Source of the DNA: Thermodesulfobacteriota bacterium
GTDB taxonomy: Bacteria > Desulfobacterota > BSN033 > UBA1163
Assembly (NCBI GenBank): GCA_049513055.1
Contig: JBEKWN010000006.1
Location: 160 to 64,159 of the forward strand
Direction of reading: 5' to 3'
Length of the DNA: 64,000 nucleotides
In this document: positions 1 to 41,540 of the stretch, piece after piece
How the letters are laid out: every line of letters begins with the position of its first letter
Numbering within the stretch: the stretch's first letter is position 1
Program-made: the position numbers and the translations under genes
Notes under the pieces: model-generated
The model's database searches: none
What the model was told of the DNA's origin: nothing
What the model saw: the letters and a program-made list of their open reading frames with translations, nothing else

Positions 1-642
1 CCAAATTACTATTGCAGCGATTACCACAATCAAACCGATTGCCAAACCTATAGTGGCCTTCTGCCATTGTCTGGGTTTAATCTTTTTCTCGCCGATTACT
101 TTACCAGCTGCCTCGGGCTCCATTAGGACTTGATATACCCGAACTGGTTTTGCGATGTTCTTAACAGCCTGTTCTCCAAGATACTGATATCCAAGAGATA
201 ATTTATTCTCCACCTGATCATAAGCAGTTCCAGAGATACAGATGCCTCCTGCTTCGGATAGACTCTCCAATCTTGCTGCGATATTGACCCCGTCTCCCAA
301 GATCTGCTCTCCATCCTCGATCACATCCCCCAGGTTGACACCGATCCGAAATTCCATCTTTCGATTTTCAGGAAGATCAGCATTTCGAGTTTTCAGTTCC
401 TTCTGAATCTCGACCGCACACTCAACCGCATCCACTACACTGCCAAACTCAGCCAGCACATTATCTCCTGGAGCATCAACTACTCTACCACGGTGCTGTT
501 GGATGAGGTTTGTCATGACTTCTTTGTAAGCATTAAGGGTTCGGACGGTGCCCTTCTCATCTTCCCCCATGAGACGGCTGTAACCTTTCACATCCGCACT
601 GAGGATGGCAGCGAGTTTGCGTTTAACTTCTTGTGTGGTCAT
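1..642 (-). CDS. Class III adenylate/guanylate cyclase (CHD domain) followed by a TM segment; gene continues beyond window start (3' partial)
   Basis: Reverse-strand translation from ATG at 640-642 (GGGGGA RBS upstream): MTTQEVKRKLAAILSADVKGYSRLMGEDEKGTVRTLNAYKEV...GDGVNIAARLES...KATIGLAIGLIVVIAAIVIW; typical cyclase catalytic motifs; no stop before coordinate 1. Confidence 0.65.
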   Translation of the reverse strand, partial: MTTQEVKRKLAAILSADVKGYSRLMGEDEKGTVRTLNAYKEVMTNLIQQHRGRVVDAPGDNVLAEFGSVVDAVECAVEIQKELKTRNADLPENRKMEFRIGVNLGDVIEDGEQILGDGVNIAARLESLSEAGGICISGTAYDQVENKLSLGYQYLGEQAVKNIAKPVRVYQVLMEPEAAGKVIGEKKIKPRQWQKATIGLAIGLIVVIAAIVIW

Positions 643-846
643 GGAATCCCCCAAAGGTCAGTTGGGAGGTTGGTAAAACCCTATATTTGGTAAGAGTCTA
701 CTAATTTGGGAAGGAAACATCAACAAGAATTATTGATTAGCACTTGAAAGGTTGTATGGTGGGATAAAAATGCAAAAACAACATTTCAGGAAGAAATCAC
801 CATCACACTTGACAATGTCCGTATAGTCAAATCCTGACTTCCACAA

Positions 847-1164
847 CTAAATCAATGAAAGGCTGTCGGCTATTGCAAGGCCGGTCTGGGTAGGATACAG
901 GTGGCCATCCTGGATTGAGATAAATCCTTCTTCTTCGAGTTTGTCCAATATTTCCTTTTTTTCCGTTAAGAGATCGTAGTGATAATGGTTCTCAAAATCC
1001 TGGAGGGAAACTCCTTTTTTCGTCCGGAGACCGAGGTAAAGCGCCTCCAGTCGTAGTTGCTCCATCGTCAGAATTTCTGTCTCTTCAATCGGAAGATTCC
1101 CCGCGTTGATGGCAGCAAGGTATTGATCAAGGGAAGGATGGTTCCACCAGTAAAGGCGAGAGGG
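847..1164 (-). pseudogene. hemW: HemW/HemN-like radical-SAM protein, C-terminal ~105 aa remnant only (N-terminal radical SAM domain absent)
   Basis: Frame is open only from the TGA at 1165-1167; translation PSRLYWWNHPSLDQYLAAINAGNLPIEETEILTMEQLRLEALYLGLRTKKGVSLQDFENHYHYDLL... resembles the HemW C-terminal domain; no upstream continuation. Confidence 0.5.
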
Positions 1165-1200
1165 TCAGGTCTTGCAATATAACAGTATGGGAGAGCAGGT

Positions 1201-1229
1201 TTGAAAGAGATGGTTGCGTTTTGTGGGTT
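1201..1229. repeat. 29-bp direct repeat copy 1 (ttgaaagagatggttgcgttttgtgggtt), extended similarity ~55 bp
   Basis: 27/29 identity with 1975-2003; flanks the brnTA cassette. Confidence 0.8.
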
Positions 1230-1298
1230 AGATTGCTATGAGTGTGGAGCCTTTTTGGCAACAAAGGAGAGGGATGGAGACCTGGTGTCAGATCGTTA

Positions 1299-1532
1299 TT
1301 ATTGGATTAAGTGGTAAGGAATCCCTTCTTCCAGTGCTTTTTTCTGAATTTCTTCCAAATCTTTGCTTGCAATTCGAATATTAATCCTCTTATCTTTTCT
1401 TATGGTTGCTTGGGCAATTTTCTGATAATGATTGATCTCTGTTTTTAAATTCTTGACTGATTTCCATTCCCCTTTTTCATAGGAATCAAGTAGGTTCTTT
1501 TCTTCTTTCGTCATCCTTGGCATTTTAATCAT
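1299..1532 (-). CDS. brnA: BrnA-like antitoxin (RHH/CopG-type) of the BrnT/BrnA type II TA pair
   Basis: 77 aa; C-terminal KRINIRIASKDLEEIQKKALEEGIPYHLIQ typical of BrnA; overlaps upstream toxin gene by 8 nt. Confidence 0.7.
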   Translation of the reverse strand: MIKMPRMTKEEKNLLDSYEKGEWKSVKNLKTEINHYQKIAQATIRKDKRINIRIASKDLEEIQKKALEEGIPYHLIQ

Positions 1533-1842
1533 CTCCTCTCAAATAGTGTTTTGTTGCCTTACGGCTTGGAATAATGGTTTTTAAAATGATTTCATTTTCC
1601 TTCTCAACAAATGGGACCAGATAGACATAATCCTCGACTTGGATTACAAATATGAATTGGTTTGGATATTTTTTCTTATTCGGGTGTTCCAGAATGTCAA
1701 GAACTTGTCCCCTTTCAATATAAAAGACAATCTCTTCAAAGGATATATTTCGCTCAGCCTTGAGTTTTTCATTTTTCTCAGGATCCCATGAGAAATACTT
1801 CATATTTAGATGAGTATCACATTGTGTGCCTATTGTCAACAC
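1525..1842 (-). CDS. brnT: BrnT-like toxin (DUF497 ribonuclease family); likely true start at MKYFSWDP (~1803)
   Basis: MKYFSWDPEKNEKLKAERNISFEEIVFYIERGQ... matches the DUF497/BrnT N-terminal signature (W-D..K...N..KHG.SFEE); toxin-first gene order typical of brnTA. Confidence 0.75.
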   Translation of the reverse strand: MLTIGTQCDTHLNMKYFSWDPEKNEKLKAERNISFEEIVFYIERGQVLDILEHPNKKKYPNQFIFVIQVEDYVYLVPFVEKENEIILKTIIPSRKATKHYLRGDD

Positions 1843-1850
1843 GGAAACCT

Positions 1851-1870
1851 AGAAAAAACTAGAAAAAACT
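1851..1870. repeat. 10-bp tandem repeat agaaaaaact x2 in the brnT promoter region
   Basis: Direct reading of sequence. Confidence 0.7.
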
Positions 1871-1974
1871 ATATTGAAATGGGAACGAATTTGGATGTAG
1901 AATAAATAAGTTTAGATTATACTTTTGGAATTTCGAGCTTAGCTATTGCAACATGACAGCATAGGAGCTCAGAT

Positions 1975-2003
1975 TTGAATGAGATGATTGCGTTTTGTGG
2001 GTT
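1975..2003. repeat. 29-bp direct repeat copy 2 (ttgaatgagatgattgcgttttgtgggtt)
   Basis: 27/29 identity with 1201-1229. Confidence 0.8.
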
Positions 2004-2045
2004 GGGGTTTCATGAATGCGGGCCATTCTTAGGGTAAAAGGAATT

Positions 2046-2062
2046 GGGGTCATCCATAAAAA
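2046..2062 (+). promoter_or_regulatory. 17-bp motif GGGGTCATCCATAAAAA, copy 1, 20 bp upstream of the DJ-1/PfpI start
   Basis: Identical 17-mer at 3146-3162; near-identical at 3842-3859; each upstream of a plus-strand accessory gene. Confidence 0.5.
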
Positions 2063-2081
2063 CTAAAGAAAGGAGTTAAAT

Positions 2082-2663
2082 ATGGCTGCGAAGAAGATTT
2101 TGATGATTGTTGGTGATTTTGTAGAGGATTATGAGGTGATGGTGCCTTTTCAGGCATTACTGATGGTCGGTCACACTGTCCATGCCGTTTGCCCTGGGAA
2201 AAAGGCTGGTGAAAGGGTTCGGACAGCAGTCCATGATTTTGAGGGAGATCAGACATACAGCGAGAAGCCTGGCCATAACTTTACACTGAACGCAACCTTT
2301 GATGAGGTCAAGCCGGAAACTTATGATGCCCTGGTAATCCCTGGCGGACGAGCGCCGGAATACATTCGCCTGAACGAGAAGGTGCTTGAGGCGGTCCGAC
2401 ACTTTGCCAAGGCGAATAAGCCTATTGCCGCCATTTGCCATGGAGCGCAAGTCCTGGCGGCGGCGGGGGTGATTGCGGGCAAAGCGTGTTCAGCTTATCC
2501 AGCCGTAGGACCCGATGTGAAAACTGCGGGTGGCAAGTTCGTTGATATACCAGTGGATAAGGCTCATGTGGATGGCAACCTCGTCACCGCACCCGCCTGG
2601 CCAGCCCATCCTGAGTGGCTGGCGAAGTTCTTAAAAGTGTTGGGGACAAAGATTGAACCATAA
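2082..2663 (+). CDS. DJ-1/PfpI family protein (class I glutamine amidotransferase-like)
   Basis: 193 aa; conserved nucleophile elbow [10 protein letters not shown], overall PfpI/DJ-1 architecture; RBS aaggag upstream. Confidence 0.85.
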
Positions 2664-2727
2664 GGGAGTTTTTCCCTTACGCCCTCGGCTGCTGGAAGAA
2701 ACGTATCGAGCAGGGGAGAGAAAGAAG

Positions 2728-3054
2728 ATGAATCAGAGTAACCCTCGATGGGTGATTTTTGCATTGTTTATTTTGATACTCACCACGGCTTTTGGATGTT
2801 CCTCTGACAAAGCATTCAAGTCTGGAATTACCTATACATGCGATGGAGGAAAGAGTTTCGTGGTAGAGCTTTACGAGAAGGTCGATATCGCTTTCCTTAA
2901 AATAGACGGGAAGAGGTTTTACCTGCCTCGTGTACCTTCTGCATCAAGGACGAAGTATAGTGAGGGAAATGTAACGCTTTGGATAGAAGGAGAAAAGGCC
3001 TCCGTCGAGATTGAGGGTAAAACCGAATTCAAGAACTGTTCGGTAAAACCTTAA
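2728..3054 (+). CDS. MliC-family lipoprotein (membrane-bound lysozyme inhibitor of C-type lysozyme-like)
   Basis: Lipobox LTTAFGCSS after signal peptide; YTCDGGKSF...SASRTKYSEGNVTLWIEGEKASVEIEG...KNCSV matches the MliC pattern (Y.C...S.SG..Y....W.KG.EA.L...C); start chosen at MNQSNP with RBS. Confidence 0.6.
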   Translation: MNQSNPRWVIFALFILILTTAFGCSSDKAFKSGITYTCDGGKSFVVELYEKVDIAFLKIDGKRFYLPRVPSASRTKYSEGNVTLWIEGEKASVEIEGKTEFKNCSVKP

Positions 3055-3096
3055 ATAAAATTTGGAACTGTTCGGTAAAACCTTAAATAAAATTTG
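3033..3096. repeat. Perfect 32-bp tandem duplication x2 (gaactgttcggtaaaaccttaaataaaatttg) duplicating the last codons plus stop of the MliC-like gene
   Basis: Direct reading of sequence; copies at 3033-3064 and 3065-3096 are identical. Confidence 0.9.
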
Positions 3097-3145
3097 GGTG
3101 CCAGGTTTTTAATCTTAATGATCAGCTTAAAATGGTGAAATTTTC

Positions 3146-3162
3146 GGGGTCATCCATAAAAA
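3146..3162 (+). promoter_or_regulatory. 17-bp motif GGGGTCATCCATAAAAA, copy 2, ~100 bp upstream of the lipoprotein gene
   Basis: Identical to 2046-2062. Confidence 0.5.
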
Positions 3163-3260
3163 GATTGTCTTTCCAAAATGAGAAGTGTATCCTTTTTGAG
3201 ATTGGGATGTTTCCTTATCTTTTTATTTTTATTCTAAAGGCTTGAGGAAAGGAGGAGATC

Positions 3261-3827
3261 ATGAAACGGTATCTCAAGAGTATTCCTTTAATTCTTTTTG
3301 TCTTAATGACTGGTTGCGCTGGCTCGAGCCAATATATGGTAAAGGCCACACCCACTGCAGCCTTCCCACCTGAAAAAGCCCTGGTTTATTTCATGCGACC
3401 GTCAGGCATGGCCTTTGCCGTTAATTTTCAAATATGGGATAGCGATCGTTTTGTTGGTTTGAGCCAGGCGAAGTCCTATTTTGCCTACGAATGTGACCCG
3501 GGTAAGCATCTATTTTTGGGATTTGCTGAAAACAAAGTAGGCGTTGAAGCGGATTTGGAAGCGGGGAAATCCTATTATATTGGCACAAATGTCAGGATGG
3601 GAGCATGGAAAGCCCGTATGGATTTTACACCCGTAACTCGAGGTTCCCAACTATGGGGTCAGGTGGAAGAGTATAAGAAAAACTTAAATTTTATTGCCAT
3701 AAAAGAAGAGGAGAGGGCAAAGTGGGAAGCTGCAAAGAAACAAGAGGCTCAAAGATTCATTGATTATTTTTTGACAGGAGAAGGAAAGTCACAAGTTTTA
3801 AGACTGAATAATGAAGATGGAAGGTAA
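3261..3827 (+). CDS. Lipoprotein, DUF2846-like
   Basis: Lipobox LMTGCAGS; ALVYFMRPSG...GKHLF pattern recalled from DUF2846 proteins; strong RBS aggaggag. Confidence 0.5.
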   Translation: MKRYLKSIPLILFVLMTGCAGSSQYMVKATPTAAFPPEKALVYFMRPSGMAFAVNFQIWDSDRFVGLSQAKSYFAYECDPGKHLFLGFAENKVGVEADLEAGKSYYIGTNVRMGAWKARMDFTPVTRGSQLWGQVEEYKKNLNFIAIKEEERAKWEAAKKQEAQRFIDYFLTGEGKSQVLRLNNEDGR

Positions 3828-3841
3828 AGGTGGCAAATTGT

Positions 3842-3859
3842 GGGGTTATTCATAAAAAA
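3842..3859 (+). promoter_or_regulatory. Motif GGGGTTATTCATAAAAAA, copy 3 (2 mismatches)
   Basis: Variant of the 17-bp motif, upstream of hypothetical gene 4042-4440. Confidence 0.4.
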
Positions 3860-3911
3860 GTAGGGTTTTTGGTGATGGATATCATCGGGTTTCTTAAAAA
3901 AAAGGGAACAA

Positions 3912-4041
3912 AGTGGCCCTTTAAGCCAAAGACCCCGACCTCCGCCAGCTTTCCCGTCGGGCCATATAATTTAGACAGTGGCCCTTTAAGCCAAAGACCC
4001 CGACCTCCGCCAGCTTTCCCGTCGGGCCATATAATTTAGAC
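3912..4041. repeat. Perfect 65-bp tandem duplication x2 immediately upstream of ATG 4042; unit contains a TATAAT-like hexamer
   Basis: Copies 3912-3976 and 3977-4041 identical (gtggccctttaagccaaagaccccgacctccgccagctttcccgtcgggccatataatttagaca). Confidence 0.9.
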
Positions 4042-4440
4042 ATGCAAATTGCCGGGCTAAGCGGATTGCGTGAGCTTTCAAAAATCGAATATAGAGCGGT
4101 TACGCGTCAATTTAAAGGAGAGAGGATCTACCATGCTTTAGATGTTGATTTTTTAGATTACCATTGGAAACTCATGATAAGCGTCGTCAATGGTAAGGTC
4201 TATAAAATTGCGGCATACATAGAAACACAGGATAGGGATTTGGCTCACGTCGCTGCAATGACAACATTTTTATATTGTAAGGGACAAATAGGAGAACCAA
4301 CCAAACAGCGAGGTGAAATGTTTATCTGGGATACGATTGACGGCGATGTTGCACTTCAAACAACACAGATAAAAGAAGAATTTGGAATCAACTTATTTTT
4401 AACCTCTCATGCCGTTCGTCACTTCACCCGATTACGGTAA
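4042..4440 (+). CDS. Hypothetical protein (132 aa), no recognisable domain
   Basis: Intact ORF directly after the tandem repeat; no family recognised by eye. Confidence 0.45.
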   Translation: MQIAGLSGLRELSKIEYRAVTRQFKGERIYHALDVDFLDYHWKLMISVVNGKVYKIAAYIETQDRDLAHVAAMTTFLYCKGQIGEPTKQRGEMFIWDTIDGDVALQTTQIKEEFGINLFLTSHAVRHFTRLR

Positions 4441-4500
4441 AGGCCTTTAATTTGGAAGATTGGGGTCAGGCAATTGTAATAAGCTATTGATACGTTCGAC

Positions 4501-4560
4501 GGCGCCAAACCCCGATTTTAAAATCGGGGTTGAAAGCGCCGCTCAGTATCAACCCTGAGC
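4501..4560. other. Cluster of stable hairpins (10-bp perfect palindrome ccccgatttt/aaaatcgggg nested in ggcgcc...gcgcc; then gctcag...ctgagc)
   Basis: Direct reading; lies in a 325-bp gap between convergent genes. Confidence 0.5.
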
Positions 4561-4765
4561 ATACCCCAGGCTTCAGACCGGGGAGTCGAATGGGTTGATT
4601 TCGATTTATGGGACAGTAGGAAAGAAAGGGTATCAGATCTACACAATTGATAAAATAAATTTTCTTCTAATAATTCATATTTTAAAATCTTGTCAAAATG
4701 TAGACCAGGCAATCAATCGATCTTTCATCTCCAATTTCATTTTTCCAAAGTAACGTCCACAAAGC

Positions 4766-5996
4766 CTATTCTTTGCCCATTCTTTTCAAAATTTCATTTC
4801 CAGCCAATATCCCGCTGATCGAAGCTTGCATCAATCCTCGCGTAATCCCAGCTCCATCACCGATCAAAAAGAGATTCTGTATGTCCGTTTCTAAGGCTGG
4901 TGAGATTTTTACCCGATTGGTATAGAACTTTACTTCCACCCCATAAAGGAGAGTATGCCTGGAAAAAATGCCGGGAGTTATTCGATCCAATGCCTCGAGC
5001 ATCTCGATGATGCTCTTCAAATGTCGATAGGGAATGACAAAACTGAGGTCACCTGGAGTGGCTGAAATCAGAGTAGGTTGAGTAATGCATCGATTGATCC
5101 GATCGGGTGTGGATCGCCTTCCATCGAGTAGATCTCCCAATCTTTGAATGATCACTCCATTCCCAAGAAGATTAGCCAGTCTCGCAATATATTTACCATA
5201 GCCAATGGGGTCGTTGAAGGGTTCGGTAAAGGTGTTGGAAACGAGTATGGCAAAATTGGTATTCTCAGTTCTTTTATTAGCGTAACTATGGCCATTGACT
5301 GTGACAATCTCATCAGCCAGGAGCTTCCACACGAACTCCTATATCGACTGGACTTGGCATAGAAGGGATTCCCAAACGCTGTACTTCGTTCTTGATCCAT
5401 TGAGCTCCCACACGGCCGGGACCACAAATCACATAGTCGGCGCTCACCTGGGTCCCATTCTCAAGCAATACCCCAAGGACCTTTCCATTCCGAACGAGAA
5501 TCTCTTTCACTGGGGTATTAAAGAAGATGTCCACTTTTTTCTCCAAGGCATTTCGGATCTTCTTCAAGAGAGGCACGCAGTTTTCAGTTCCCAGATGTCT
5601 GATTTCCATGGGAATGAATTCTAATCCTGCCAGTTTCGCTTCCTGGTATAGGGCTTCAGTTTTATCAGAGGATTGACCGAAGACCTCTTTCGGGGCACCA
5701 AATGAGAGGTAGATCTCATCAGCTTTTCTGAGGAGATTCACCAATTGGGGCTGGGGAATAAAGTCGCCTAAGAACCCGCCAACCCTTGGTGAAAGAGTCA
5801 GCTTACCATCACTGAAGGCACCTGCTCCTCCCCAGCCACACAGGAGTTCCATTCCCCTCCCCCTTTTCCTCTCATGGATATCCTTTCCTCTCTCAAAAAT
5901 CGCCATATCTTCCATGCCACCCTTCGACAAGGTGAGAGCGGCAAAAATGGCTGATGGACCGGCCCCAACAATCACCACTTGATATCGCTTTTTCAT
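4766..5996 (-). pseudogene. FAD-dependent oxidoreductase (COG2509-like, GxGxxG + G.GGAG.FSDGKL motif) interrupted by a frameshift near 5313-5332
   Basis: ORF 5313-5996 (MKKRYQVVIVGAGPSAIFAAL...GWGGAGAFSDGKLTL) and ORF 4766-5332 are consecutive parts of one protein in different frames with a 20-nt overlap. Confidence 0.6.
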
Positions 5997-6240
5997 CGTT
6001 CCCTATTACCCATTCTCGCTTTGATTCCGTTATCCTCTTATCCTTAAATTTTTACATGGCCAATCAGAGAATTTCAATAGAATTCTATTGATCACAACAT
6101 ACCACAAGAAGAGCTTAAAGTGTTATTCTTAATAAATTGACGATATAGATGCCGGCGACATTGCCCCCGACCTAAGGATATAGGTTCAGATCCAAATCTT
6201 GAATCTTGACATTTGGTAGTCTAACCGAGAGGGTTAAAAG

Positions 6241-6510
6241 TTAGCAACAGCATTCGTCGGAGCAGTCAAAACACGATTCGTAACACGCACTGCAATCTTC
6301 GGAAGTTATTTCTTCGGAATCTCCATAGTCACAGTATCCTTCGCGAATGGCTGATCGTGCTTTATTGTAGAACTCCTTTGAAAATCTTTGGATGCCATGT
6401 ATGGCGAGCACGTGTTGACCCAACTTGCTAAGTGTTTCCTCCTCGGTCTCACCACAGGCCAAAAAATCGCAATCTAAACCAATGTCTCTGCAATAAAGTT
6501 CTTTATCCAT
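6241..6510 (-). CDS. DUF1059-family small metal-binding protein with a Cys-rich C-terminal extension (CSACYESCFDCSDECCC)
   Basis: MDKELYCRDIGLDCDFLACGETEEETLSKLGQHVLAIHG matches DUF1059 core; start placed at MDKELYC. Confidence 0.6.
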   Translation of the reverse strand: MDKELYCRDIGLDCDFLACGETEEETLSKLGQHVLAIHGIQRFSKEFYNKARSAIREGYCDYGDSEEITSEDCSACYESCFDCSDECCC

Positions 6511-6757
6511 TTGAAGTCTCCTTGAAAATGTTGACTCGCTAAATTTCCTCCTCCACAACCTTTCAACTTAAATATAATTACTCTCTTTCAATTTGTAAAA
6601 CCGCAAAGGGCATGGTGCATAGCGCATAGCGCAAAGTGTAAGGAACCTCTTAATAATTACATTGCAGATCGCCTGATCAATAATTATCTTTAAATCCAAA
6701 GGGTAAAAAGGCTTTTATAGACAAGAGTCAATTAAATTAACGCTAAAGGAGGGTACC

Positions 6758-7564
6758 ATGAAAAGCTTATTAATAAAACTTGCTGTATTTACATTGGTTT
6801 TAGGGATAGTAAGCGTTGGAACCGCAGAACCAAAAATTGCGGGGAAAACTGTCGAGTACAGCGCTCAGGGCGTGGTCATGAAGGGTTACCTGGCCTACGA
6901 TGAGAGTATTAAAGAGAAGCGTCCGGGAGTGATGGTGGTTCATGAATGGTGGGGACTTAATGATTATGCACGCAAGCGGGCACGAATGCTGGCGGAGTTG
7001 GGATACACCGCCCTTGCTGTGGACATGTATGGTGAAGGCAAGGTAGCGATGCATCCTGATGATGCAGGAGGATTCGCATCAGAGCTTATGAAGAATTTCG
7101 ATGTTGCCAAAACACGCTTTATGGCGGCCATGGACTTCTTGAAGCGACAGGAGACTGTTGACCCTACCGTTATTGCAGCCATTGGCTATTGTTTCGGAGG
7201 TGGCGTTGTGCTCAACATGGCACGTGAGGGCGTGGATCTCAAGGGGGTTGCAAGCTTTCATGGAGGATTGACTGCAGTCAATCCTGCCCAGCCAGGATCC
7301 GTCAAGGCGAAGATCCTCGTGCTCAATGGTGGGGCTGATAAGTTTACGACTCCAGAACAGATCAAGGCATTCAATCAAGAGATGAAAGCTGCCGGTGCCG
7401 ATTTTAAGTTCATCTCCTATCCGGGCGCCACGCACAGCTTTACCAATCCCGAGGCCGATGCATTGGGAAAGAAATATAACATGCCCATTGCTTACAATGC
7501 TCAAGCAGACAAGAAATCGTGGGATGAGCTGAAGAAGTTTTTGAAGATGATTTTTAAGAGTTAG
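6758..7564 (+). CDS. Dienelactone hydrolase family protein, secreted (signal peptide)
   Basis: 268 aa; N-terminal signal peptide; HEWWGLNDYARKRARMLAELGYTALAVDMYGEG and C-terminal catalytic His region typical of DLH. Confidence 0.85.
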   Translation: MKSLLIKLAVFTLVLGIVSVGTAEPKIAGKTVEYSAQGVVMKGYLAYDESIKEKRPGVMVVHEWWGLNDYARKRARMLAELGYTALAVDMYGEGKVAMHPDDAGGFASELMKNFDVAKTRFMAAMDFLKRQETVDPTVIAAIGYCFGGGVVLNMAREGVDLKGVASFHGGLTAVNPAQPGSVKAKILVLNGGADKFTTPEQIKAFNQEMKAAGADFKFISYPGATHSFTNPEADALGKKYNMPIAYNAQADKKSWDELKKFLKMIFKS

Positions 7565-7656
7565 AAAGATATGGTCTGCCCCAAGACTCCCTGACCACAG
7601 AGACGGGACGACGGTTGTAGCACACCCATTATGTCCTTCTGAGGAAGGTGAGGACA

Positions 7657-8433
7657 TTATTCCTCTAACCAGATGAAATCACCTATCCGCGAGCGCTCCT
7701 TCATGGGCAGGTCCCCAACATATGAGGCGAAGGTTATGACGGCAACTTTAAGCTCGGGATGGTTCTTCTGGAGCTGATTGGGTATGCCGAGATGGTAGTC
7801 GGAATGAAAGTGGCCGCAGCAAAAGAGTATTCGGTGGTCTATAAAGGGCTCAAGTGAGGCGGCCATTACAGCATCCTTAAGAACCTGTGCCTTGAAAAGA
7901 GCCTTTACATTCATACCTTTCATCGGAGTTGAATGCGGCATTATTTCCATATCGGCCACAAAGCGCTTGTAATATTCCTTTGAATCAAGGCGCAAGGTAT
8001 TGGGAAGGTATACGCTGTCTGGTCCCACTACTTTAGATGAAACCTTATTTGCCATAGCCACTGCTGCGGCTGCCCTGCGCGGCACGTTGGCTGCGATCAC
8101 AGGGATTCCTTTCTTCTTCGCAAACTCAATGAGCGGCCGGTAATCCTCCAGATAGTTCGGCCAAGGACGGGCTTGCTCAAGAAATTTATCTTCAGGGATA
8201 GTTCCTTTGAGGTAGGCATCAAGGGTATTTTGGACATCGCGCTCGAACATCTCGAGAGCGAGCACAAGACTCGAATCCCGTTCGGCCAATCCTGTAAGAA
8301 TGGTAAGTTCTGTATCATGGGATATGCGGGAGCTATGTTCTTCTCCAATGAAGATGGCGTTATAATCCAGTAGGATTTCAAAAGCATCTTCTACATCGAA
8401 GAGTTTACCTTTATTGGTCATTAAATAGGGCAT
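7657..8433 (-). CDS. ChaN-family protein (haem-binding uptake, Tiki/TraB-like fold)
   Basis: IFIGEEHSS...LALEMFERDVQ...W.NY...IPVIAANVPR pattern recalled for ChaN/PF04187. Confidence 0.6.
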   Translation of the reverse strand: MPYLMTNKGKLFDVEDAFEILLDYNAIFIGEEHSSRISHDTELTILTGLAERDSSLVLALEMFERDVQNTLDAYLKGTIPEDKFLEQARPWPNYLEDYRPLIEFAKKKGIPVIAANVPRRAAAAVAMANKVSSKVVGPDSVYLPNTLRLDSKEYYKRFVADMEIMPHSTPMKGMNVKALFKAQVLKDAVMAASLEPFIDHRILFCCGHFHSDYHLGIPNQLQKNHPELKVAVITFASYVGDLPMKERSRIGDFIWLEE

Positions 8434-8477
8434 TTGGATTTCCTACGTCATTTTCCGTTACGGTTGCATAGTAACTG

Positions 8478-9050
8478 TCAACGGATATAAGTCGTCTTTT
8501 CTTTCACCTCTTTTCGGTGAACGGGAGTAGGGGGACTCCCTGGCTTTCCAATGCAGATCAGCGCCAGAGGTGTTTTCTCAGGAGCCATGGCAAGTATTTC
8601 TCTCATGGCTTTCTTATCAAATAAAGTGAACCACAAGCTGCTAAGACCTAACGCATAGGCGGCAAGATGCATATTTTGGATGGCGGCTGCGCAGGCTGCT
8701 TGATAGCCCATCGGGCCTTCTTCCGTAAACATGTCGACTCCAGTCTTCTTAGGATCTCCGATCACAGCGATGATCACAGGGGCCAATCTCAAAAAGTCGA
8801 GCTGGTAGGATCCCAACCACTTCCAACCGCTTTTTTCAAGGGCCCACTTTCGACATCTTTCCCCTTCAGAAAAGATCTTTTCTTTTAATTCCTTATTGGT
8901 GACGACAACGAATTCCCAGGGCTGGCTGTTGAGTGGAGATGGTGCCCAAGTGGCCGCCTCGAGAATCTTTTCAATGGTGGCCTCCTCTAATTGATCTGGG
9001 AGAAAATTCCTGCAGCTTCGCCTTTCTTTCATTGCTGTAAAAAGATCCAT
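8478..9050 (-). CDS. Nitroreductase family protein
   Basis: RRSCRNF...WAPSPLNSQPWEFVVV motif. Confidence 0.8.
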   Translation of the reverse strand: MDLFTAMKERRSCRNFLPDQLEEATIEKILEAATWAPSPLNSQPWEFVVVTNKELKEKIFSEGERCRKWALEKSGWKWLGSYQLDFLRLAPVIIAVIGDPKKTGVDMFTEEGPMGYQAACAAAIQNMHLAAYALGLSSLWFTLFDKKAMREILAMAPEKTPLALICIGKPGSPPTPVHRKEVKEKTTYIR

Positions 9051-9251
9051 CTCCCTCCTCCTTTCTGAGAAAGAAAAATTTATAAAGGTTGATCTTAACC
9101 CACCTCACAATGACAAATAAATATTATCCCTTCTCCAGATCCCTTGTCAAAATAAATCCAAATTTTCAGAAGGAGGTGCTTGAAAATGGTTAAGCGACTT
9201 GGTAAAATTTTGTTGAACAAGGAAATATCTTTAGGAAAGGGAGGGTGGCCT

Positions 9252-10880
9252 ATGAAAAAGCTTTTAAAGATAGCCATCGTGGTGGTAGGGGTCCTGGTCC
9301 TTTTATTCATTGGACTTACACTTTTTGTCAAGAGTTATCTCTCCAGCGATCGTCTCAAACCGATCATCCTTCCAAAGGCTGAAGCCGTGACAGGGAGAAA
9401 GGTCCAATTAGATGAGATCAACGTTTCTCTCTTTAAAGGAATTGTAGCAAAAGGATTGAGCGTCAAGGAAAAGGACGGACAGAAAGATTTCCTGAAGATA
9501 GGGAGGTTTGTCCTCTCCTACCGCCTTTTACCCCTTCTGAAGAGACAACTCGTCATCAGCAAGATCGAAATTGTTTCTCCCTCGCTTTCCATCAAGAAGG
9601 AGAGGGAAAGAAGATATAACTTCAGCGACATCACGGAAAAGCGCTCCCAGGAACCCCAAAAGCCCTCTCGGCCCGAACGTCAAGCGCTTCCTGTCTCCAT
9701 CATTGCAGATCGGTTGTTTATCCGAAATGCCAGTTTGACGTTTGTCGATGAAGAGAAAGCATTACCCGATGTCTCCATTACTTTAGATGCAGAGTTTAGG
9801 GGATCAGTGGAAAAGGATGGTACCCCGCGTATGGATTTCGGGCTCATCTCCCTTAAGGAAATCAAAGCTAAGCTTAAGGATAAGGAAATTAAGGTTTCAG
9901 GTAAGATCGACATGGATGCGAAGGCCCTCCGAGCCAATCTTCAGGCCATGATCGGAAAGGATAACATTGAACTCTCTGCAACGGTCAAAGATTACCGTTC
10001 GGCACCCGATATCGTCGCCAATATCCACGCCAAAACGCTCGACCTTCATCAGCTGATGGGTTTAAGCGGTGGAAAGAAAGTGCAGGGAGATCATCCTCAA
10101 CGGAAGGAGGAAAAAGCAGAACCCTCTGAAGGGGGCATGATGCAGAAACTCAAAGCTTCAGGGGAGATCGTGGTGGATAAAGCCAGATATCAAGATTACA
10201 CCCTGAAAGATGTCCGCATCCATTACCAGTATGCAAAAGGGATGGTGAGGGTCGATCCTCTTGGACTACAGTTTTCTGGAGAAGGGTCCTTCACGGCCGA
10301 GGGATCTCTGAATGGGAACCTTCAGTTTGCCATAGAGGAGACATCTACTATTCAAAAGACTTTGAAAGGGACAGCCGTGGCAAAACTTGGGAGGGGGGAA
10401 ATCAAACAGTCTCAAATTTTTGATGCCGTTGCGCTGCTCACCGGCGTTCCTTCCTTGAAGAATCCTGGTTTTGACGAAGGCCTATTCAATTTTGAGGTGA
10501 AGGATGAAAGGGTATTTCTCGATGGCTGGATACGCTCCCCTCTTTTCAAGGTCAGTCCGAAGGGTGTGGTTGACTTTGAGAAGAGGCTGGATGTACCAAC
10601 AGAACTTAAGCTCTCGCCGAGCCTTACAGGAAACCTAAAGGGGAAGCTCGCTGCAATAAAACTCCTCGACGATGAGCAGGGGTGGAAAGTCATCCCCCTC
10701 AGGATCAAAGGCACGACGGAGAAGCCCAGTGTCAATCTTGATGAGGAAGCCTTAGGTAAACAATTAGGCCGTGGTTTGACAAAAGAGATCGAAAAGCGTC
10801 TCTTCGAACGAACGCCCAAGGAGTCAGGGAAACCCTCCAAGAAGTCAAAAGACATTTTGAAAGAACTCCTCGGAGAATAA
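9252..10880 (+). CDS. AsmA-like envelope biogenesis protein (N-terminal TM anchor, long periplasmic domain)
   Basis: MKKLLKIAIVVVGVLVLLFIGLTLF anchor then repetitive beta-rich domain; overall resemblance to AsmA family; start chosen at second in-frame ATG. Confidence 0.5.
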   Translation: MKKLLKIAIVVVGVLVLLFIGLTLFVKSYLSSDRLKPIILPKAEAVTGRKVQLDEINVSLFKGIVAKGLSVKEKDGQKDFLKIGRFVLSYRLLPLLKRQLVISKIEIVSPSLSIKKERERRYNFSDITEKRSQEPQKPSRPERQALPVSIIADRLFIRNASLTFVDEEKALPDVSITLDAEFRGSVEKDGTPRMDFGLISLKEIKAKLKDKEIKVSGKIDMDAKALRANLQAMIGKDNIELSATVKDYRSAPDIVANIHAKTLDLHQLMGLSGGKKVQGDHPQRKEEKAEPSEGGMMQKLKASGEIVVDKARYQDYTLKDVRIHYQYAKGMVRVDPLGLQFSGEGSFTAEGSLNGNLQFAIEETSTIQKTLKGTAVAKLGRGEIKQSQIFDAVALLTGVPSLKNPGFDEGLFNFEVKDERVFLDGWIRSPLFKVSPKGVVDFEKRLDVPTELKLSPSLTGNLKGKLAAIKLLDDEQGWKVIPLRIKGTTEKPSVNLDEEALGKQLGRGLTKEIEKRLFERTPKESGKPSKKSKDILKELLGE

Positions 10881-10947
10881 AAGCTAAATTGTCCGGAACG
10901 ATACTTAATCTGACAGAGGGTGCCAAACCACCTTTTGGCTGTTACAC

Positions 10948-12600
10948 CTACTTATCTTCAATAGAAAGTTGCTCTTGGAGTTGATGTTTACTGGTAGAAA
11001 TGTGCATGATCAAAAGGGGGAAAATATTGTCCCGCCTCCTTTCTGCAATCCCATGGAAACAAAAAGGAGGTATCCGCGGGCGAAGGGAACCTGGGCTTCG
11101 ATCTGACGCTACGGTCTGGTTGGGATTATCGGCAAGCCGGTCGATTAGCGCTGCCAATGTTCTCACTTTCTGCGCCGTCCGGTTCCGGTAGAAACTAACC
11201 TCTCCTTGGGGGCCATCCAGTGGGAACCCATCATGTGGCTGATAGACGATGATCTCGCGGTTGCCTACTAAGCTGAGGGCCTCCACCATGGGTAGATGTA
11301 TACTGCTTCTCGCGACATCAGCTTCTTTCATTGGTCCAGTAAACCAGAGGCTCCATCCCAGAGCAAAGAGGACAGCAATACAGGTAGAAGTCCAACGAAG
11401 ATCGTTTCGTCGGATTGAGAGTACGCAACCCGCGACGGCGAGCACAAAAACAGCACCGGCTGTTGCTACGGAAAGAGCTGATCCTCCCCGGATACCAGTC
11501 ACCCCCACCATACCGCCGGCGATAAGGATAGCCGCCGTTGTTATGATCCAGGTAAGAATCTTGACACCACGTCCCGAAGACATCCATCCTTTCGCGATGC
11601 TCCAGGCAACAAGCATGGCCAGCACCGGGTGTACAGGAAGAAAATAAACCGAATCCTTGGCCAAAGAGGTCGAAAGAAGTACTAAAGGGCCAATAAAGAA
11701 GGCGAGAAAGAAGATCCCAGCTCGATTCTGCCATTCTTTCCGAGTCTTCCAGGCCATCCAGATCGCCAATGGGAGCAAGACCGACCCTGGCGCAAATGCC
11801 GGCCAGATGTTGAGGAGGTAGTAGTAGATAGCCCGTGTGTGGCTCAGGTATCCGAGGAAGCGGCCGATATGGTTCACGATGAAGAATTCCTGAATAAGGT
11901 TAGACGAAGCTTGTAAAAGGAACGGGAAGACCCAACTCAGAACTGGAACCAGAAAAGCAATGACAGGAAACGGCCTTAAAATCTGCCGAAGCTCACCGAA
12001 CCGCCTGCTCAGGATAAGATAGAGAAGGAATCCTGAACCGAAGATGGCGGGGCCGACGAACCCCTTGAAGAGGAAGCTCACCCCGAGTGAAAAACCCGCT
12101 GCAGCATAGGCACGGCGTTTTTTGCATACGTCAGTGTTTTCGAGAGCGATCCAGGTGAAGAGGACAGTAAAGGCAACCCCAGCGGTCAGGGCATTGTCAA
12201 GAAGGACGTTGTGCGCGGTTCGGCAGAACCGCATGGAGAAAGACAGAATGGCCGCCGCCAGAGAACCTCCTTCGACCCCTAAGATACGCCACCCAAGAAG
12301 GAACACAGCAGTGAGGGACGCGAGAGCGAAGGCCGCCGCGGTAAGACGTGCGGCTGCGGCACTCGGCTTGCCAACGATTCGGTACGCTGTGGCTACTACG
12401 GCTGGGAAGCCAGGTGGCTTCTCAACAAATGGGAGCCCCCCGAGGTGAGGCACGATGTAATTGCCTCCTTCGTACATCTCCCGGGCAACCTCCACCTCAC
12501 GAAGGTCATCCGGAGGCAGAAGCTCACGACCTATCTGTCCAATGAGAATAACGATCGCACTCGCCAGAAGGAGAAAGGTTACACGGATTCGCATATCCAC
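10948..12600 (-). CDS. GT-C fold glycosyltransferase, ArnT/PMT_2 (GT39/GT83)-like, compositionally atypical (GC-rich)
   Basis: DDLREVEVAREMYEGGNYIVPHLGGLPFVEKPP signature (DExRYA...EKPPL), multi-TM; Ala-rich; local GC well above neighbours; AT-rich C-terminal tail looks like read-through. Confidence 0.75.
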   Translation of the reverse strand: MDMRIRVTFLLLASAIVILIGQIGRELLPPDDLREVEVAREMYEGGNYIVPHLGGLPFVEKPPGFPAVVATAYRIVGKPSAAAARLTAAAFALASLTAVFLLGWRILGVEGGSLAAAILSFSMRFCRTAHNVLLDNALTAGVAFTVLFTWIALENTDVCKKRRAYAAAGFSLGVSFLFKGFVGPAIFGSGFLLYLILSRRFGELRQILRPFPVIAFLVPVLSWVFPFLLQASSNLIQEFFIVNHIGRFLGYLSHTRAIYYYLLNIWPAFAPGSVLLPLAIWMAWKTRKEWQNRAGIFFLAFFIGPLVLLSTSLAKDSVYFLPVHPVLAMLVAWSIAKGWMSSGRGVKILTWIITTAAILIAGGMVGVTGIRGGSALSVATAGAVFVLAVAGCVLSIRRNDLRWTSTCIAVLFALGWSLWFTGPMKEADVARSSIHLPMVEALSLVGNREIIVYQPHDGFPLDGPQGEVSFYRNRTAQKVRTLAALIDRLADNPNQTVASDRSPGSLRPRIPPFCFHGIAERRRDNIFPLLIMHISTSKHQLQEQLSIEDK

Positions 12601-13290
12601 CCTTCCTTTTGTTCAAAAAATTCACCTTTTGCTTTAATAATTGGTCATGTGTGTGAGAACGCTGCCATCAGGAGAACTGGAATTATTATTACAAATAGTC
12701 TGCGAAAGGGCAATGAGGCATTAAGAATTCTATACGTCTTTGGTGAGTACTTTTTTGGCTTCTTTTCCTGCATTATATTCATTGACGGCCTTCTATCGAT
12801 ATATACGATCCATAGATCAGCAAATCTCTCTTTGTAAATAAGTAAGTAATTTTCGAAAAGAAAGATCAAATGGACATTAAATTTTGACGAAGATTTTCTA
12901 ACCTTGAGAAATAGAATTTTAGGTTTTTAAAGAGGGCAATTACGTGGTGAAGTTTGAATCTTGACTCAACTCAGCAAACTTCAATTCTTCCATATCGATG
13001 GGATCCAATTTTTCCTATCGTAGGGTCAAGGAATGGTGAATTACCTTAGTTTTACCTTGGCTGTATTCGGCGGTTCCATTTTCGTGCCCGTTTAGGTTCG
13101 CCATAGCACTTCTCCATTCCCTGACACATAGTTAGGAGATTATTGATTATTAGTTGAAATCTACACTTCTAATTGAGAGCTGTTAGACCTCGATTACAGG
13201 AAGGAAGTGTTACCGGACTTGACAGTGTCTGTAAGATCAAACTCCGACTTTCACATCTAAATTTTGTTGAATCTCTTGCTTCATAAAAAA

Positions 13291-36044: not shown

Positions 36045-36164
36045 TTTTTTGTGTTATATTAAGAAACTAAAAGTTTATATACTTTTGAAGTGTTCATTTC
36101 GACGGATTGATAAGCTTTTTATATCTTGTTATATAAGTATCGATTTAGAAGGGACTTTAGGTTG

Positions 36165-37766
36165 ATGGATGTGAGGAGAAAATATATCTTTGGGTTACTC
36201 GCCATAGGGATGGTTCTCTTCTTTTTCAATTTGGGAGGAAGGGATCTCTGGGAACCCGATGAAACCCGGTATGCCGTGGTGGCCCGCGAGATGGTGCAAA
36301 GCGGGGATTGGATTTTACCTCATTTCAACAGGGAGATTTATGCAGAAAAACCTCCTCTCTTTTTCTGGTTGGTCAATCTCTCCACTTTCTTTCTAGGAGA
36401 AAACAACGAGTTGTCCAATCGCCTTCCTTCTGCCCTGGCAGGGTTGATGACCCTTTTCATCACATTTCTTTTTGGAGAGAGACTCTTTAATCTCAGAGTC
36501 GGATTCCTTTCCGCTTTGGTGCTGGGGACATGTATTTTGTTTCCCCAATTATCGCGTTGGATGATGCTCGATTCATTGTTTACCCTTTTTTTACTCTTGA
36601 GCCTTTTTTATTTTTATCTTGGTTACGAGAAAGAGGGGAGTCGCCGGAAATATTACTATCTCGCCAGCCTCTTTATGGGGCTGGGGGTTTTAACGAAAGG
36701 GCCTATTGGTTATCTTCCTCTTCCCATCCTCCTCCTCTTTGCCTTTTTTCAAAAAGACGTTAAGAAATTTTGGAATCGCGATTTGCTATGGGGATGTCTC
36801 CTCTCCTTGATTCTTGTATTGATCTGGTGGTTACCTGCTTGTTGGATTGGGGGAAAAGAATATATCTATTGGCTCTTGTTTAAGCAAGCCGTTGGAACTT
36901 ATGTAGAGGGGGGAAGACATTTTCATCCTGAGTCATTCTATTTCTACTTTGTCCGTTTCCCGATAGAATTTTTTCCGTGGATCGTTTTTTTGCCCACCGC
37001 ATTTGTTTTAGGGTTACGAAGGGACTTTCGCAAAAGAAAAGAATTCGTATTTCTCTCCATCTGGTTCTTTTTCATTTTCCTTTTCTTTACCCTCTCCAAA
37101 GGGAAGAAGGATAATTACCTTTTACCCCTTTACCCAGCTGCCGCCATGATGGTCGGGAGTCTATGGGATTTTGGGGTTCAGTCAGGGGAGGGGAAGAAAG
37201 GATTCCTATCTGGACTTCTTCTTTTAACCTTTCTGTTTCTCGCCGGCCTGGTTCTGTTCCTATCAAAAATGCCACAACAGTCCTATCCAGACATGACGGC
37301 CTATTCTTCTTTAGGGCTTTCCATTCTCTCTTATATCCTGCTTGGGTCCTTTTTCTCTCTGTTGTTTTTTATTAAGAAAAAGAAACAGGCCTCGTTCATC
37401 AGCCTTATGATCGCTTTCGCTCTTTTCCATCTTCATCTCTCCTATTCTCTTCCGCCAAAACTCAATCCCCAGAGGTCAGCCAAGGCATTTTCAGAGAAAG
37501 TTCTAAAGAGAATGGAGATGGGGGATGAACTTAAAACTTATTCCCTTAAGTCTAATGGATTGCTTTTCTATACCCAGAAACCCTATATAGAGAGTATTCA
37601 AAGCAAAGATCGCTTTTTTGAAATTCTCAACTCCTCCCAACGAGTTTTTGTTGTGTTTTATCCGGAAGTCCTTAATCAACTTCAGAAAGAAACAGGAGTT
37701 GAGTTCACTCCTCTTGAACAGGTGAAGGTAGGCCATTGGAAATATGTTCTCATTTCAAATCATTAA
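36165..37766 (+). CDS. GT-C glycosyltransferase, ArnT/PMT_2-like, paralog 1 (full length with C-terminal periplasmic domain)
   Basis: DETRYAVVAREM...AEKPPLFFW signature; 12+ TM; ORF could start at 36126. Confidence 0.8.
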   Translation: MDVRRKYIFGLLAIGMVLFFFNLGGRDLWEPDETRYAVVAREMVQSGDWILPHFNREIYAEKPPLFFWLVNLSTFFLGENNELSNRLPSALAGLMTLFITFLFGERLFNLRVGFLSALVLGTCILFPQLSRWMMLDSLFTLFLLLSLFYFYLGYEKEGSRRKYYYLASLFMGLGVLTKGPIGYLPLPILLLFAFFQKDVKKFWNRDLLWGCLLSLILVLIWWLPACWIGGKEYIYWLLFKQAVGTYVEGGRHFHPESFYFYFVRFPIEFFPWIVFLPTAFVLGLRRDFRKRKEFVFLSIWFFFIFLFFTLSKGKKDNYLLPLYPAAAMMVGSLWDFGVQSGEGKKGFLSGLLLLTFLFLAGLVLFLSKMPQQSYPDMTAYSSLGLSILSYILLGSFFSLLFFIKKKKQASFISLMIAFALFHLHLSYSLPPKLNPQRSAKAFSEKVLKRMEMGDELKTYSLKSNGLLFYTQKPYIESIQSKDRFFEILNSSQRVFVVFYPEVLNQLQKETGVEFTPLEQVKVGHWKYVLISNH

Positions 37767-37919
37767 GGGTCAGATGAGTTTTCTGGAAAGATAGGTATCC
37801 AAAAAAGGAACGGAGTAAAATAAAAACGATGAGGATCCAAGGGGAGTAAAGAGGGATATGATATCATAGGCTCATTAAAGAAATGGAATGGAAGATCCTC
37901 TATCGATTGAAATGAAAAG

Positions 37920-38564
37920 GTGCCGATCATGTATCATGTAAAGGTTATGTATCAAAATAAGAAATATGCGGCAGGCTATGAGAAGACAAGGTTCAAGGGG
38001 ATCTACGGAAGATTTAAGAATTGGAATACCAAAAGGGTGATTTCAAAACTGATTGGGTTTACAGAGAGAAAAGGTTTCGCCCTTGACCTTCCCTGCGGGA
38101 CAGGGAGATTAGGCCGCCTGATCTTAAAGAGTGGGTATAAATGGATCGGCGCGGATATCTCGTTAGAGATGATGATGGAGTCAAGAAAAAGGATGAACGG
38201 CTTTGAAGACTCATTCTGGAATATCCGCCTGGATGCAGAGACGATGTCATTTAAGGACAATAGTATTGACTGCCTCTTCTCCATTCGATTTATCTATCAC
38301 ATCCCCGTTGAGATAAGATATCGGATGCTTAAAGAGATGAGGAGGGTCACCAAGAAATGGCTGATCATCGATTATAATTATCCAAACAGGTTTAAAGAGT
38401 TGGCTCGCAGGGTAGGATCCTTATTAAGCAAAAGGCCGATCAAGAAAAGAATGATGCTCCAAGAGATATCGAGAGAGCTACGGGAGAATGGCTTAAATGT
38501 TTATAAAGCCATCCCTACATCAAGATTATTTTCCGATAATATATTATTGTTATGTCATAAATAA
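37920..38564 (+). CDS. Class I SAM-dependent methyltransferase
   Basis: LDLPCGTGRLG motif I. Confidence 0.75.
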   Translation: MPIMYHVKVMYQNKKYAAGYEKTRFKGIYGRFKNWNTKRVISKLIGFTERKGFALDLPCGTGRLGRLILKSGYKWIGADISLEMMMESRKRMNGFEDSFWNIRLDAETMSFKDNSIDCLFSIRFIYHIPVEIRYRMLKEMRRVTKKWLIIDYNYPNRFKELARRVGSLLSKRPIKKRMMLQEISRELRENGLNVYKAIPTSRLFSDNILLLCHK

Positions 38565-39655: not shown

Positions 39656-39676
39656 CATTCAGGGAAAGGAGTTAAA

Positions 39677-41539: not shown

Positions 41540-41540
41540 A

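Follow-up and report, generated by a model that had tools for sequence, protein, structure and literature searches.

The DNA analysed here is a stretch of 64,000 nucleotides (hereafter the window) from an uncultured Thermodesulfobacteriota bacterium. Its first 6 kb carry the truncated 3' end of a hemW gene, a brnT/brnA toxin-antitoxin pair (brnTA), four plus-strand accessory genes and a gene for an FAD-dependent oxidoreductase. This locus is probably what is left of a lepA-hemW neighbourhood conserved in the lineage, altered in three layers of change and overlaid with artefacts of contig joining. The first layer, old and fixed, would consist of a deletion of ~2.9 kb, two duplicate copies of a gene start (D1A and D1B below) and a 17-nt sequence motif (the 17-mer). 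The second, variable within the population, would comprise a 745-bp segment with a DUF2846-like gene and a structured 103-bp element, and the third, private to the window sequence, five insertions or deletions (indels) at positions 1311-11106. The gene identities, the synteny, the polymorphisms and the private status of the five indels were established by direct comparison of contigs. In kind, the locus is a strain-variable islet with a toxin-antitoxin pair, gene remnants and an element resembling a miniature inverted-repeat transposable element (MITE). Its repeats are of more than one origin: old paralogous sequence, one mobile element and several repeats found in the window only.

The host is an uncultured, Syntrophales-like Thermodesulfobacteriota population of peat and wetland, represented by contigs of 60-109 kb in dozens of metagenome assemblies from such habitats. 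The window was compared with contigs of the same population (L001-L009, of which L001 and L002 are long and L003-L009 short) and with related metagenome contigs of 80-97% nucleotide identity to it (L101, L105, L126 and others). Gene families were assigned with Pfam, NCBIfam and PADLOC, and the presence or absence of proteins was determined in a collection of ~15 billion protein sequences. The synteny set came from a metagenome scan anchored on the HemW C-terminus, which gave 80 loci with an intact hemW C-terminal half; both the proteins and the DNA of the window were mapped onto them to obtain the gene orders. A scan of genome contigs with the intact FAD-oxidoreductase gave best matches of 61% identity, with 0 of the 14 other query genes alongside.

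The lepA-hemW neighbourhood

The features of the locus are as follows (position in the window, strand, description).

847-1150 (-): hemW 3' remnant, last 100 codons and stop codon; HemN_C, E=1.4e-11
1151-1161 (no strand): putative deletion junction, 11 bp between the hemW tail (ends 1150) and D1A (starts 1162)
1162-1276 (+): D1A, predicted DUF3795 promoter region and first ~22 codons; ATG at 1210; gene remnant
1299-1532 (-): brnA, predicted antitoxin; CopG_antitoxin and BrnA matches; 77-aa product here
1528-1803 (-): brnT, predicted toxin, 92 aa; PF04365 BrnT_toxin, E=7.1e-9
1939-2042 (+): D1B, second, more degraded DUF3795 5' copy; ATG at 1984, 17 codons, stop
2046-2062 (+): motif copy 1, exact; ends 19 nt before the DJ-1 start codon
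2082-2663 (+): DJ-1/PfpI family protein; PF01965, E=2.5e-46; TIGR01382 PfpI, E=8.9e-59
2728-3054 (+): MliC-family lipoprotein; PF09864, E=1.7e-10
3097-3841 (+): presence/absence segment, 745 bp, with the DUF2846-like lipoprotein gene at 3261-3827
3146-3162 (+): motif copy 2, exact; inside the DUF2846 segment
3842-3858 (+): motif copy 3, 2 mismatches; ends 16 nt before the start of the 166-aa open reading frame (ORF)
3875-4440 (+): conserved hypothetical 166-aa gene; here a 5' stub and a 132-aa ORF (4042-4440), split by a duplication
4492-4594 (+): structured miniature element, 103 bp; TTGAT direct repeats at 4487-4491 and 4595-4599
4766-5996 (-): FAD-dependent oxidoreductase, split into 4766-5332 and 5313-5996; 451 aa and intact in all other contigs

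The genes beside the remnant recur next to intact lepA-hemW pairs: DJ-1, MliC, the 166-aa ORF and/or brnTA adjoin such a pair in L101, L105, L106 and L126. With hemW drawn on the plus strand, the order in L101 is 166-aa ORF(-), MliC(-), DJ-1(-), D1B, brnT, brnA, lepA, hemW and FAD-oxidoreductase. In L105 it is FAD-oxidoreductase, 166-aa ORF(-), MliC(-), DJ-1(-), D1, lepA and hemW, and in L126 DJ-1(-), a ribbon-helix-helix gene(-), an intact DUF3795 gene(-), lepA, hemW and FAD-oxidoreductase. MliC thus lies downstream of DJ-1 in L101 and L105 too, and the DJ-1 protein beside lepA is 94-95% identical to that of the window in L101, L105 and L126. Identity to the relatives is likewise 94-95% for BrnT and BrnA and 72-76% for MliC and the 166-aa ORF, and where the order DJ-1, MliC, 166-aa ORF is kept the DNA is ~80-93% identical to the window across these genes. 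The gene content next to hemW differs between related lineages. Judged from these gene orders, brnTA, DJ-1, MliC and the 166-aa ORF are long-standing neighbours of lepA-hemW, and the last three are not recent acquisitions. The ancestral layout, in window orientation, would have been hemW(-) lepA(-), the divergent D1A, brnA(-) brnT(-), D1B, DJ-1, MliC and the 166-aa ORF.

The initial annotation, a reading of this DNA made without database searches, had noted a HemW-like fragment surviving at 847-1164 and had taken the adjoining patch of genes for a replacement of most of hemW. The fragment is there: the minus-strand ORF at 850-1164 matches HemN_C, and homology to intact hemW genes is bounded exactly by position 1150 and the stop codon at 847. 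The remnant encloses a 72-aa ORF (start Met at 1065) and is 90-97.7% identical to the 3' end of the intact hemW genes in L096-L108 and L126. HemN_C alone survives; the radical SAM half of hemW and lepA are absent from the window locus, L001 and L002 and present in relatives. As the truncation is found in L001 and L002 as well, it is real and fixed in the population.

Replacement is not borne out by the relatives, in which the same genes stand beside intact lepA-hemW (L101, L105, L126); a deletion is favoured instead. In L126 and L101, lepA and the 5' part of hemW occupy the interval equivalent to window 1150-1162. The first ~31 bp of D1A lie directly upstream of lepA in L101, joined to the brnA flank, and in L126 the D1 sequence begins the DUF3795 gene divergent from lepA. 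Since D1A is the native upstream neighbour of lepA in both, an internal deletion explains the junction at the remnant. On the other side, the 65-130 bp past the stop codon of the remnant correspond to the native downstream flank of hemW in L104 and L102. We infer a single event, in which ~2.9 kb would have been lost, comprising the lepA leader, the whole of lepA and hemW codons 1 to ~280. It would have left the 304-bp hemW tail joined to D1A, and it would be old and fixed in the population.

The tail could otherwise be a displaced target copy, produced by integration into the hemW 3' end of DNA bringing a replacement 3' end with it, with the block between it and an intact hemW as the insert. 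A pattern of hemW, a gene X and a partial hemW 3' copy does recur in relatives. Gene X is a DEAD helicase accompanied by a 72-aa HemN_C ORF in L097 (11850-12059), L125 (2776-2986, two pieces) and L135 (3910-4125). The pair of helicase and 72-aa ORF is found also in L183 (2889-3107) and L182 (111-329, cut by the contig end), where the contigs do not cover the upstream hemW. In L106 gene X is the FAD-oxidoreductase, followed by a 181-bp hemW copy (4891-5071), and in L102 (1163-1336) only a 3' piece of the FAD-oxidoreductase gene stands in this place, accompanied by a hemW copy of 41 bp. This suggests that the hemW 3' end is prone to duplicative insertion in the clade. For the tail in the window such an origin is improbable: the 64 kb hold no intact lepA-hemW pair and the intervening genes are of housekeeping type, the D1A sequence abutting the remnant belongs upstream of lepA, and no integrase is associated with the hemW 3' site. 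Up to 4 kb downstream of hemW, 51 relatives have 123 ORFs, and the families that occur two or more times among these (dehydrogenases, DUF1847, FAD-oxidoreductase, DEAD helicase, PIN and AbiE toxin-antitoxin) include no integrase or transposase.

The residue conservation of the 72-aa HemN_C ORF is compatible with a conserved standalone mini-protein, a reading weakened by ascertainment bias and by the recurrence of the ORF as a partial hemW copy behind inserted genes. In L094, L095 and L097, which are of long-read style, hemW is called as two ORFs (radical SAM part and HemN_C part), probably by long-read frameshift error. Such split hemW calls gave the matches of a protein search the look of a family of HemN_C-only proteins.

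Adjoining the hemW remnant, on the minus strand at window 1-642 and running beyond the left edge (L001 91-822), lies a gene for a 243-aa class III nucleotide cyclase with a weak match to Pycsar defence cyclases (PycC, E=8.5e-10). The four long contigs with a placeable left end (L001, L002, L012 and a 109-kb contig) all stop ~165-180 bp left of the window start, possibly at a repeat or a site of strain variation.

Repeats, the 17-nt motif and the miniature element

The direct repeats reported to bracket brnT/brnA are real, and their similarity extends over 102 nt at 73% identity (1167-1268 vs 1941-2042). The 23-nt core occurs nowhere else in the window (0 expected by chance). Their interpretation as scars of cassettes or of recombination had to be given up: they are the 5' ends of a DUF3795 gene that is intact in L126, where the full-length homologue matches PF12675 with E=1.3e-18. 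The core encodes M(V/I)AFCGL.C.ECG, the Cys-rich N-terminus of PF12675, and the D1A ORF matches profile positions 1-23/26 of this family (E=0.0007-0.001). Identity is 73-76% between D1A and D1B and 87-88% between D1A and either the beginning of the intact L126 gene or the L108 copy. L101 and L105 have a close match to D1B where the window has it, upstream of DJ-1. Since D1 copies are matched in L101, L105, L108 and L126, the duplication predates these lineages. By homology, the repeats flanking brnTA are old gene-start remnants of DUF3795 and not insertion scars or attachment sites.

The two small genes between the repeats are a predicted toxin-antitoxin pair. BrnT reaches 36.3 bits against PF04365 (curated cut-off 34.5), and its protein is identical in 23 contigs, including a protein of an NCBI Thermodesulfobacteriota metagenome-assembled genome (MAG); BrnT and MliC are identical to the NCBI MAG proteins MGA2315120 and MGA2315122. 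The intact BrnA of L001 reaches 30.0 bits against CopG_antitoxin (cut-off 28) and 19.9 bits against NCBIfam BrnA (cut-off 60). The BrnA of the window, with its altered C-terminus, has 21.4 bits against CopG_antitoxin, below the cut-off of 28.

The four plus-strand accessory genes that follow brnTA were identified as in the initial annotation, namely DJ-1/PfpI, MliC, a DUF2846-like gene and a 132-aa ORF. The DUF2846-like gene matches PF11008 with E=1.5e-5, which is under the curated cut-off. The segment carrying it is present in L003-L009, is replaced by 37 bp in the otherwise identical L001 and L002, and is absent from L101 and L105. The gene is truly present or absent among strains of one population. 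The 132-aa ORF is the 3' four-fifths of a split gene, since a single copy of the 65-bp sequence duplicated here gives an ORF of 166 aa. Gene calls give the intact 166-aa product on every contig of sufficient length (L001, L002, L004 and L005), and 166 aa is also the length kept in ~30 of 42 related protein clusters. No match to the 166-aa ORF was found in Pfam, NCBIfam or PADLOC, and a Foldseek search of the Protein Data Bank with its AlphaFold model (mean pLDDT, the predicted local distance difference test score, 65) gave a best E of 0.014 and template-modelling (TM) scores of ~0.3 or lower. It is a clade-restricted hypothetical protein with no recognisable fold. PADLOC gave no matches among the genes of the patch.

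The 17-mer GGGGTCATCCATAAAAA is exact at 2046 and 3146 and has 2 mismatches at 3842, a count that was matched in none of 100 shuffles. It precedes three units, as had been claimed, with the third copy imperfect and MliC lacking it. The motif is non-palindromic and lies 16-98 nt upstream of start codons in the window. For the DJ-1 and 166-aa ORF copies the distance to the start codon is 16-19 nt, relatives included, and ~15 nt upstream of the 17-mer are likewise similar among the copies. Its core GGGGTYATCCATAA stands upstream of DJ-1 in L101 and L105, and variants precede the 166-aa ORF in L001 (GGGGTGATCCGTAAAAA) and in L101 and L105 (GGGGACATCTATAAATA). The full 17-mer with its A-run was not found in ~2 Mb of other fetched loci. 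It was not called as a promoter in a sigma-70 scan, in which the counts of promoters and terminators were not above those of shuffled sequence; as a candidate it would be somewhat nearer to the sigma-32-type promoter (TTGAAA-N13-15-CCCCATnT). From its placement, the 17-mer is presumably a promoter-proximal cis-element common to the DJ-1, DUF2846 and 166-aa ORF units, with a putative regulatory role.

The initial annotation had seen in these units a sign of cassette-like acquisition or of an active recombination hotspot. What stands of this is that the locus varies between strains, in the DUF2846 segment and the 103-bp element; a cassette mechanism is not supported. A cassette array whose single-gene units are moved at the 17-nt motif in an integron- or Xer-like manner, by a recombinase encoded elsewhere in the genome, would account for the motif at the start of three units. 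It would also suit the sole gene-sized polymorphism (DUF2846), which has one motif copy ~50 bp inside its left end and another immediately past its right end, and in which the spacer before the left copy resembles the spacer of the haplotype lacking DUF2846. Such an array is very improbable here, as the motif core is kept upstream of the same genes in relatives of ~80% nucleotide identity with nothing inserted, so that it does not mark cassette boundaries in those species. The motif of the DUF2846-lacking haplotype is not a hybrid of the two flanking copies, and the confinement of the full motif to this locus and its absence before MliC speak against such an array too. One unit (DUF2846) is variable, and the order of DJ-1, MliC and the 166-aa ORF is constant in relatives. 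It is very improbable as well that the motif, together with the ~15 nt of upstream similarity, is the crossover site of an integrase-free or remote-integrase cassette system; in a system of this kind the mobile units would be single genes with their promoters, for instance the DUF2846 gene.

Nor was any of the expected machinery found. The precomputed Pfam lists for ~1-13, 14.5-55 and 47-64 kb of the window contain no Phage_integrase, other recombinase or transposase domain, and no integrase recurs in the relatives. Inverted repeats and attC-like hairpins are absent: z values were near zero (-0.55 to +0.72) when the 17-mer regions, D1A, D1B and the 65-mer were folded as single-stranded DNA. 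The locus lacks the defining features of an integron. ARAGORN found no tRNA or tmRNA, hence no tRNA-type attachment site, and Rfam over 600-6300 gave no family, its sole match being a snoRNA at chance level (E=0.68).

The hairpin cluster that had been noted at 4501-4560 is confirmed as part of a 103-bp element. The region 4480-4610 folds into a closed multi-hairpin structure of -55.3 kcal/mol (z = -6.0), and the element ends in a stem of ~8 bp with 1 mismatch, CGTTCGAC...GTCGAATG (by eye; the outer stem of the fold agrees). As expected of a MITE, the target site is duplicated around it and is empty in close relatives: L004 (same species, flanks 98.8-99.5% identical) and L105 (~91% identical) have TTGAT once and no element. 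The element would have entered between the FAD-oxidoreductase gene and the 166-aa ORF, duplicating 5 bp (TTGAT) of its target. It belongs to no Rfam family, and its cloverleaf-like fold is not a tRNA according to ARAGORN. Taken together, it is fairly well supported that the hairpin cluster is a small mobile element.

The 64-kb window has one copy of the element, and 12 related loci each have one partial homologue in hemW. Over its right half, the element is 79-85% identical to an in-frame insert of 34-42 aa in the hemW of these relatives (L101, at 4164-4290, L100, L103, L105, L106, L109, L111, L114, L116, L121, L127 and L133), and the corresponding sequence in the window is 4533-4598. The insert falls within the radical SAM half; six other hemW genes have none. 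The element may represent a previously undescribed family that inserts in frame into essential-type genes (hemW) of Syntrophales-like bacteria. Window 4533-4598 was considered also as a displaced 5' piece of hemW (an inversion); this was rejected, since the match covers only the in-frame insert and ends at its boundary.

Indels private to the window sequence

Five indels of 32-124 bp, all in the first 11 kb, set the window apart from the other contigs.

1311/1312, brnA 3' end (-): 66-bp deletion; segment present in L001, L002, L101 and L106
3033-3096 (+): 32-bp tandem duplication, perfect x2; single copy in L001-L009
3912-4041 (+), in the 166-aa gene: 65-bp tandem duplication, perfect x2; single copy in L001-L009
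5315/5316, FAD-oxidoreductase (-): 124-bp deletion; segment in L101, L105, L106, L108 and L126
11106/11107: 73-bp deletion that shifts the reading frame near the 3' end of a PMT_2 glycosyltransferase gene; the L001 product has 552 aa

Window 1-13287 consists of blocks 100% identical to L001/L002, with zero substitutions and six discontinuities, namely the DUF2846 haplotype difference and the five indels. Beyond 14530, three gap-free stretches are 99.99-100% identical to public contigs (14530-35528 with 3 mismatches, 33381-55153 with 1 and 47118-64000 with 0), and the ~50 kb compared beyond 11,107 contain no indel. None of the contigs otherwise 99.99-100% identical to the window carries any of the five. 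At the protein level, the six products altered by the indels have no occurrence in the ~15 billion sequences (among them the 77-aa BrnA, the split 166-aa products and both halves of the FAD-oxidoreductase), and unaltered neighbours occur in 12-23 contigs.

It is quite likely that the five private indels are contig-join or assembly artefacts and not mutations. The 32-bp unit corresponds exactly to the last 32 bases common to the haplotypes with and without DUF2846 ahead of their point of divergence, and 57 bp separate the point where they rejoin from the start of the 65-bp unit. The polymorphic insert is thus enclosed by the two duplications. As other contigs carrying DUF2846 (L003-L009) have neither duplication, this is not what a biological process would be expected to produce. 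Their most likely source is the abutting of short contigs in a part of the assembly where strains are mixed, with overlapping ends left in place or gaps closed. The lengths give a hint in this direction, 32 being k-1 and 65 being 2k-1 for k=33, though an exact fit to a de Bruijn-graph overlap is seen at the left join alone.

Real and very recent mutations in one clone, made by error-prone end-joining or replication template switching, are an unlikely source of the five indels. For them one may cite the clustering of the indels (five in the first 11 kb and none in the ~50 kb compared beyond), the two real polymorphisms held by the same region, and the few substitutions against the reference contigs, which show that the window is an independent sequence. 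Five events of 32-124 bp without one substitution in 13 kb are hard to reconcile with this view. Moreover, the altered products appear in none of the dozens of assemblies of the population, microhomology at the junctions of the three deletions amounts to 0-1 bp, and one duplication ends at the haplotype branch point. A local hotspot that pseudogenises brnA, the 166-aa ORF, the FAD-oxidoreductase and the PMT_2 gene, which mutation would imply, is doubtful to the same degree. Of the initial annotation, then, the perfect tandem duplications (32 bp x2, 65 bp x2) and the frameshift of the FAD-oxidoreductase hold as descriptions of the window. Recent recombination is not the best explanation of the duplications, which are private and likely join artefacts, and the split gene reflects a private 124-bp deletion, the gene being intact in all other contigs. 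Duplications and frameshift, hotspot-like at first sight, vanish against independent assemblies of the same population and should not be taken as evidence of biology.

Several paralogous PMT/PMT_2 glycosyltransferase genes lie further to the right (36126-52006), with two similar sub-clusters (PMT_2, Glycos_transf_2 and LAB_N); window 42198-42481 and 43702-43986 are 77% identical. Short imperfect intergenic tandem repeats with periods of 8, 14-18 and 15 bp were detected by Tandem Repeats Finder at 59026-59057 and 62696-62806.

Some observations weigh against the proposed history of a decayed lepA-hemW neighbourhood overlaid with join artefacts. The 11-bp junction 1151-1161 matches no relative. 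The FAD-oxidoreductase gene follows hemW in L096, L101, L102 (3' fragment only), L103, L106, L108 and L126 and follows the 166-aa ORF in L105 and the window; as its position differs by lineage, the history needs at least one further rearrangement. D1A and D1B around brnTA could be an old insertion-linked duplication, and the motif copies near either end of the DUF2846 segment are placed as a motif-based exchange would have them. The right-hand 65-bp duplication is not at a haplotype boundary, unlike the left one, and the artefact origin of the indels was deduced from contigs, not from reads.

The locus remains of value as a small documented case of decay and variation of a lepA-hemW neighbourhood in an uncultured bacterium. 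The in-frame hemW insert and the recurrent hemW 3' copies are leads, of modest interest, for a study of miniature elements and insertion hotspots.

Comparison with known systems

Integron cassette arrays and integrase-less attC clusters resemble the locus in their short genes on one strand, in a toxin-antitoxin pair of opposite orientation and in a short repeat between some units. They differ in that the repeat of the window is 5', near start codons, and not a 3' imperfect palindrome. The window also has neither a single-strand hairpin nor intI, and its units keep a fixed order across species.

The pair at 1299-1803 departs from BrnT/BrnA type II toxin-antitoxin systems in that the toxin gene lies upstream of the antitoxin gene in the window. 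The antitoxin is also under the NCBIfam BrnA cut-off, and its C-terminus is altered in the window by the 66-bp deletion. It agrees with them in having adjacent, overlapping small genes, a toxin that passes the Pfam BrnT cut-off and an antitoxin whose C-terminus is a predicted ribbon-helix-helix of the CopG/BrnA type.

Among strain-variable genomic islets the locus is unusual in keeping the order of DJ-1, MliC and the 166-aa ORF in related species and in having no integrase, tRNA or att site in the window. It shares with them small accessory or stress genes, a type II toxin-antitoxin pair, truncated genes and a miniature repeat element, as well as a gene present or absent among near-identical strains and variable content beside hemW.

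Finally, the 103-bp element differs from MITE- and REP-like (repetitive extragenic palindromic) elements in having one copy in the window, so that high copy number was not seen at the loci examined. Only its right half is common to both insertion sites, and its terminal inverted repeats are short. Like these elements and the Rickettsia palindromic elements, it combines strong structure (z=-6) with a flanking 5-bp direct repeat and with empty sites in close relatives. Rickettsia palindromic elements reportedly insert in frame into genes, and sequence related to the 103-bp element forms the in-frame insert of 34-42 aa in the HemW of some relatives.

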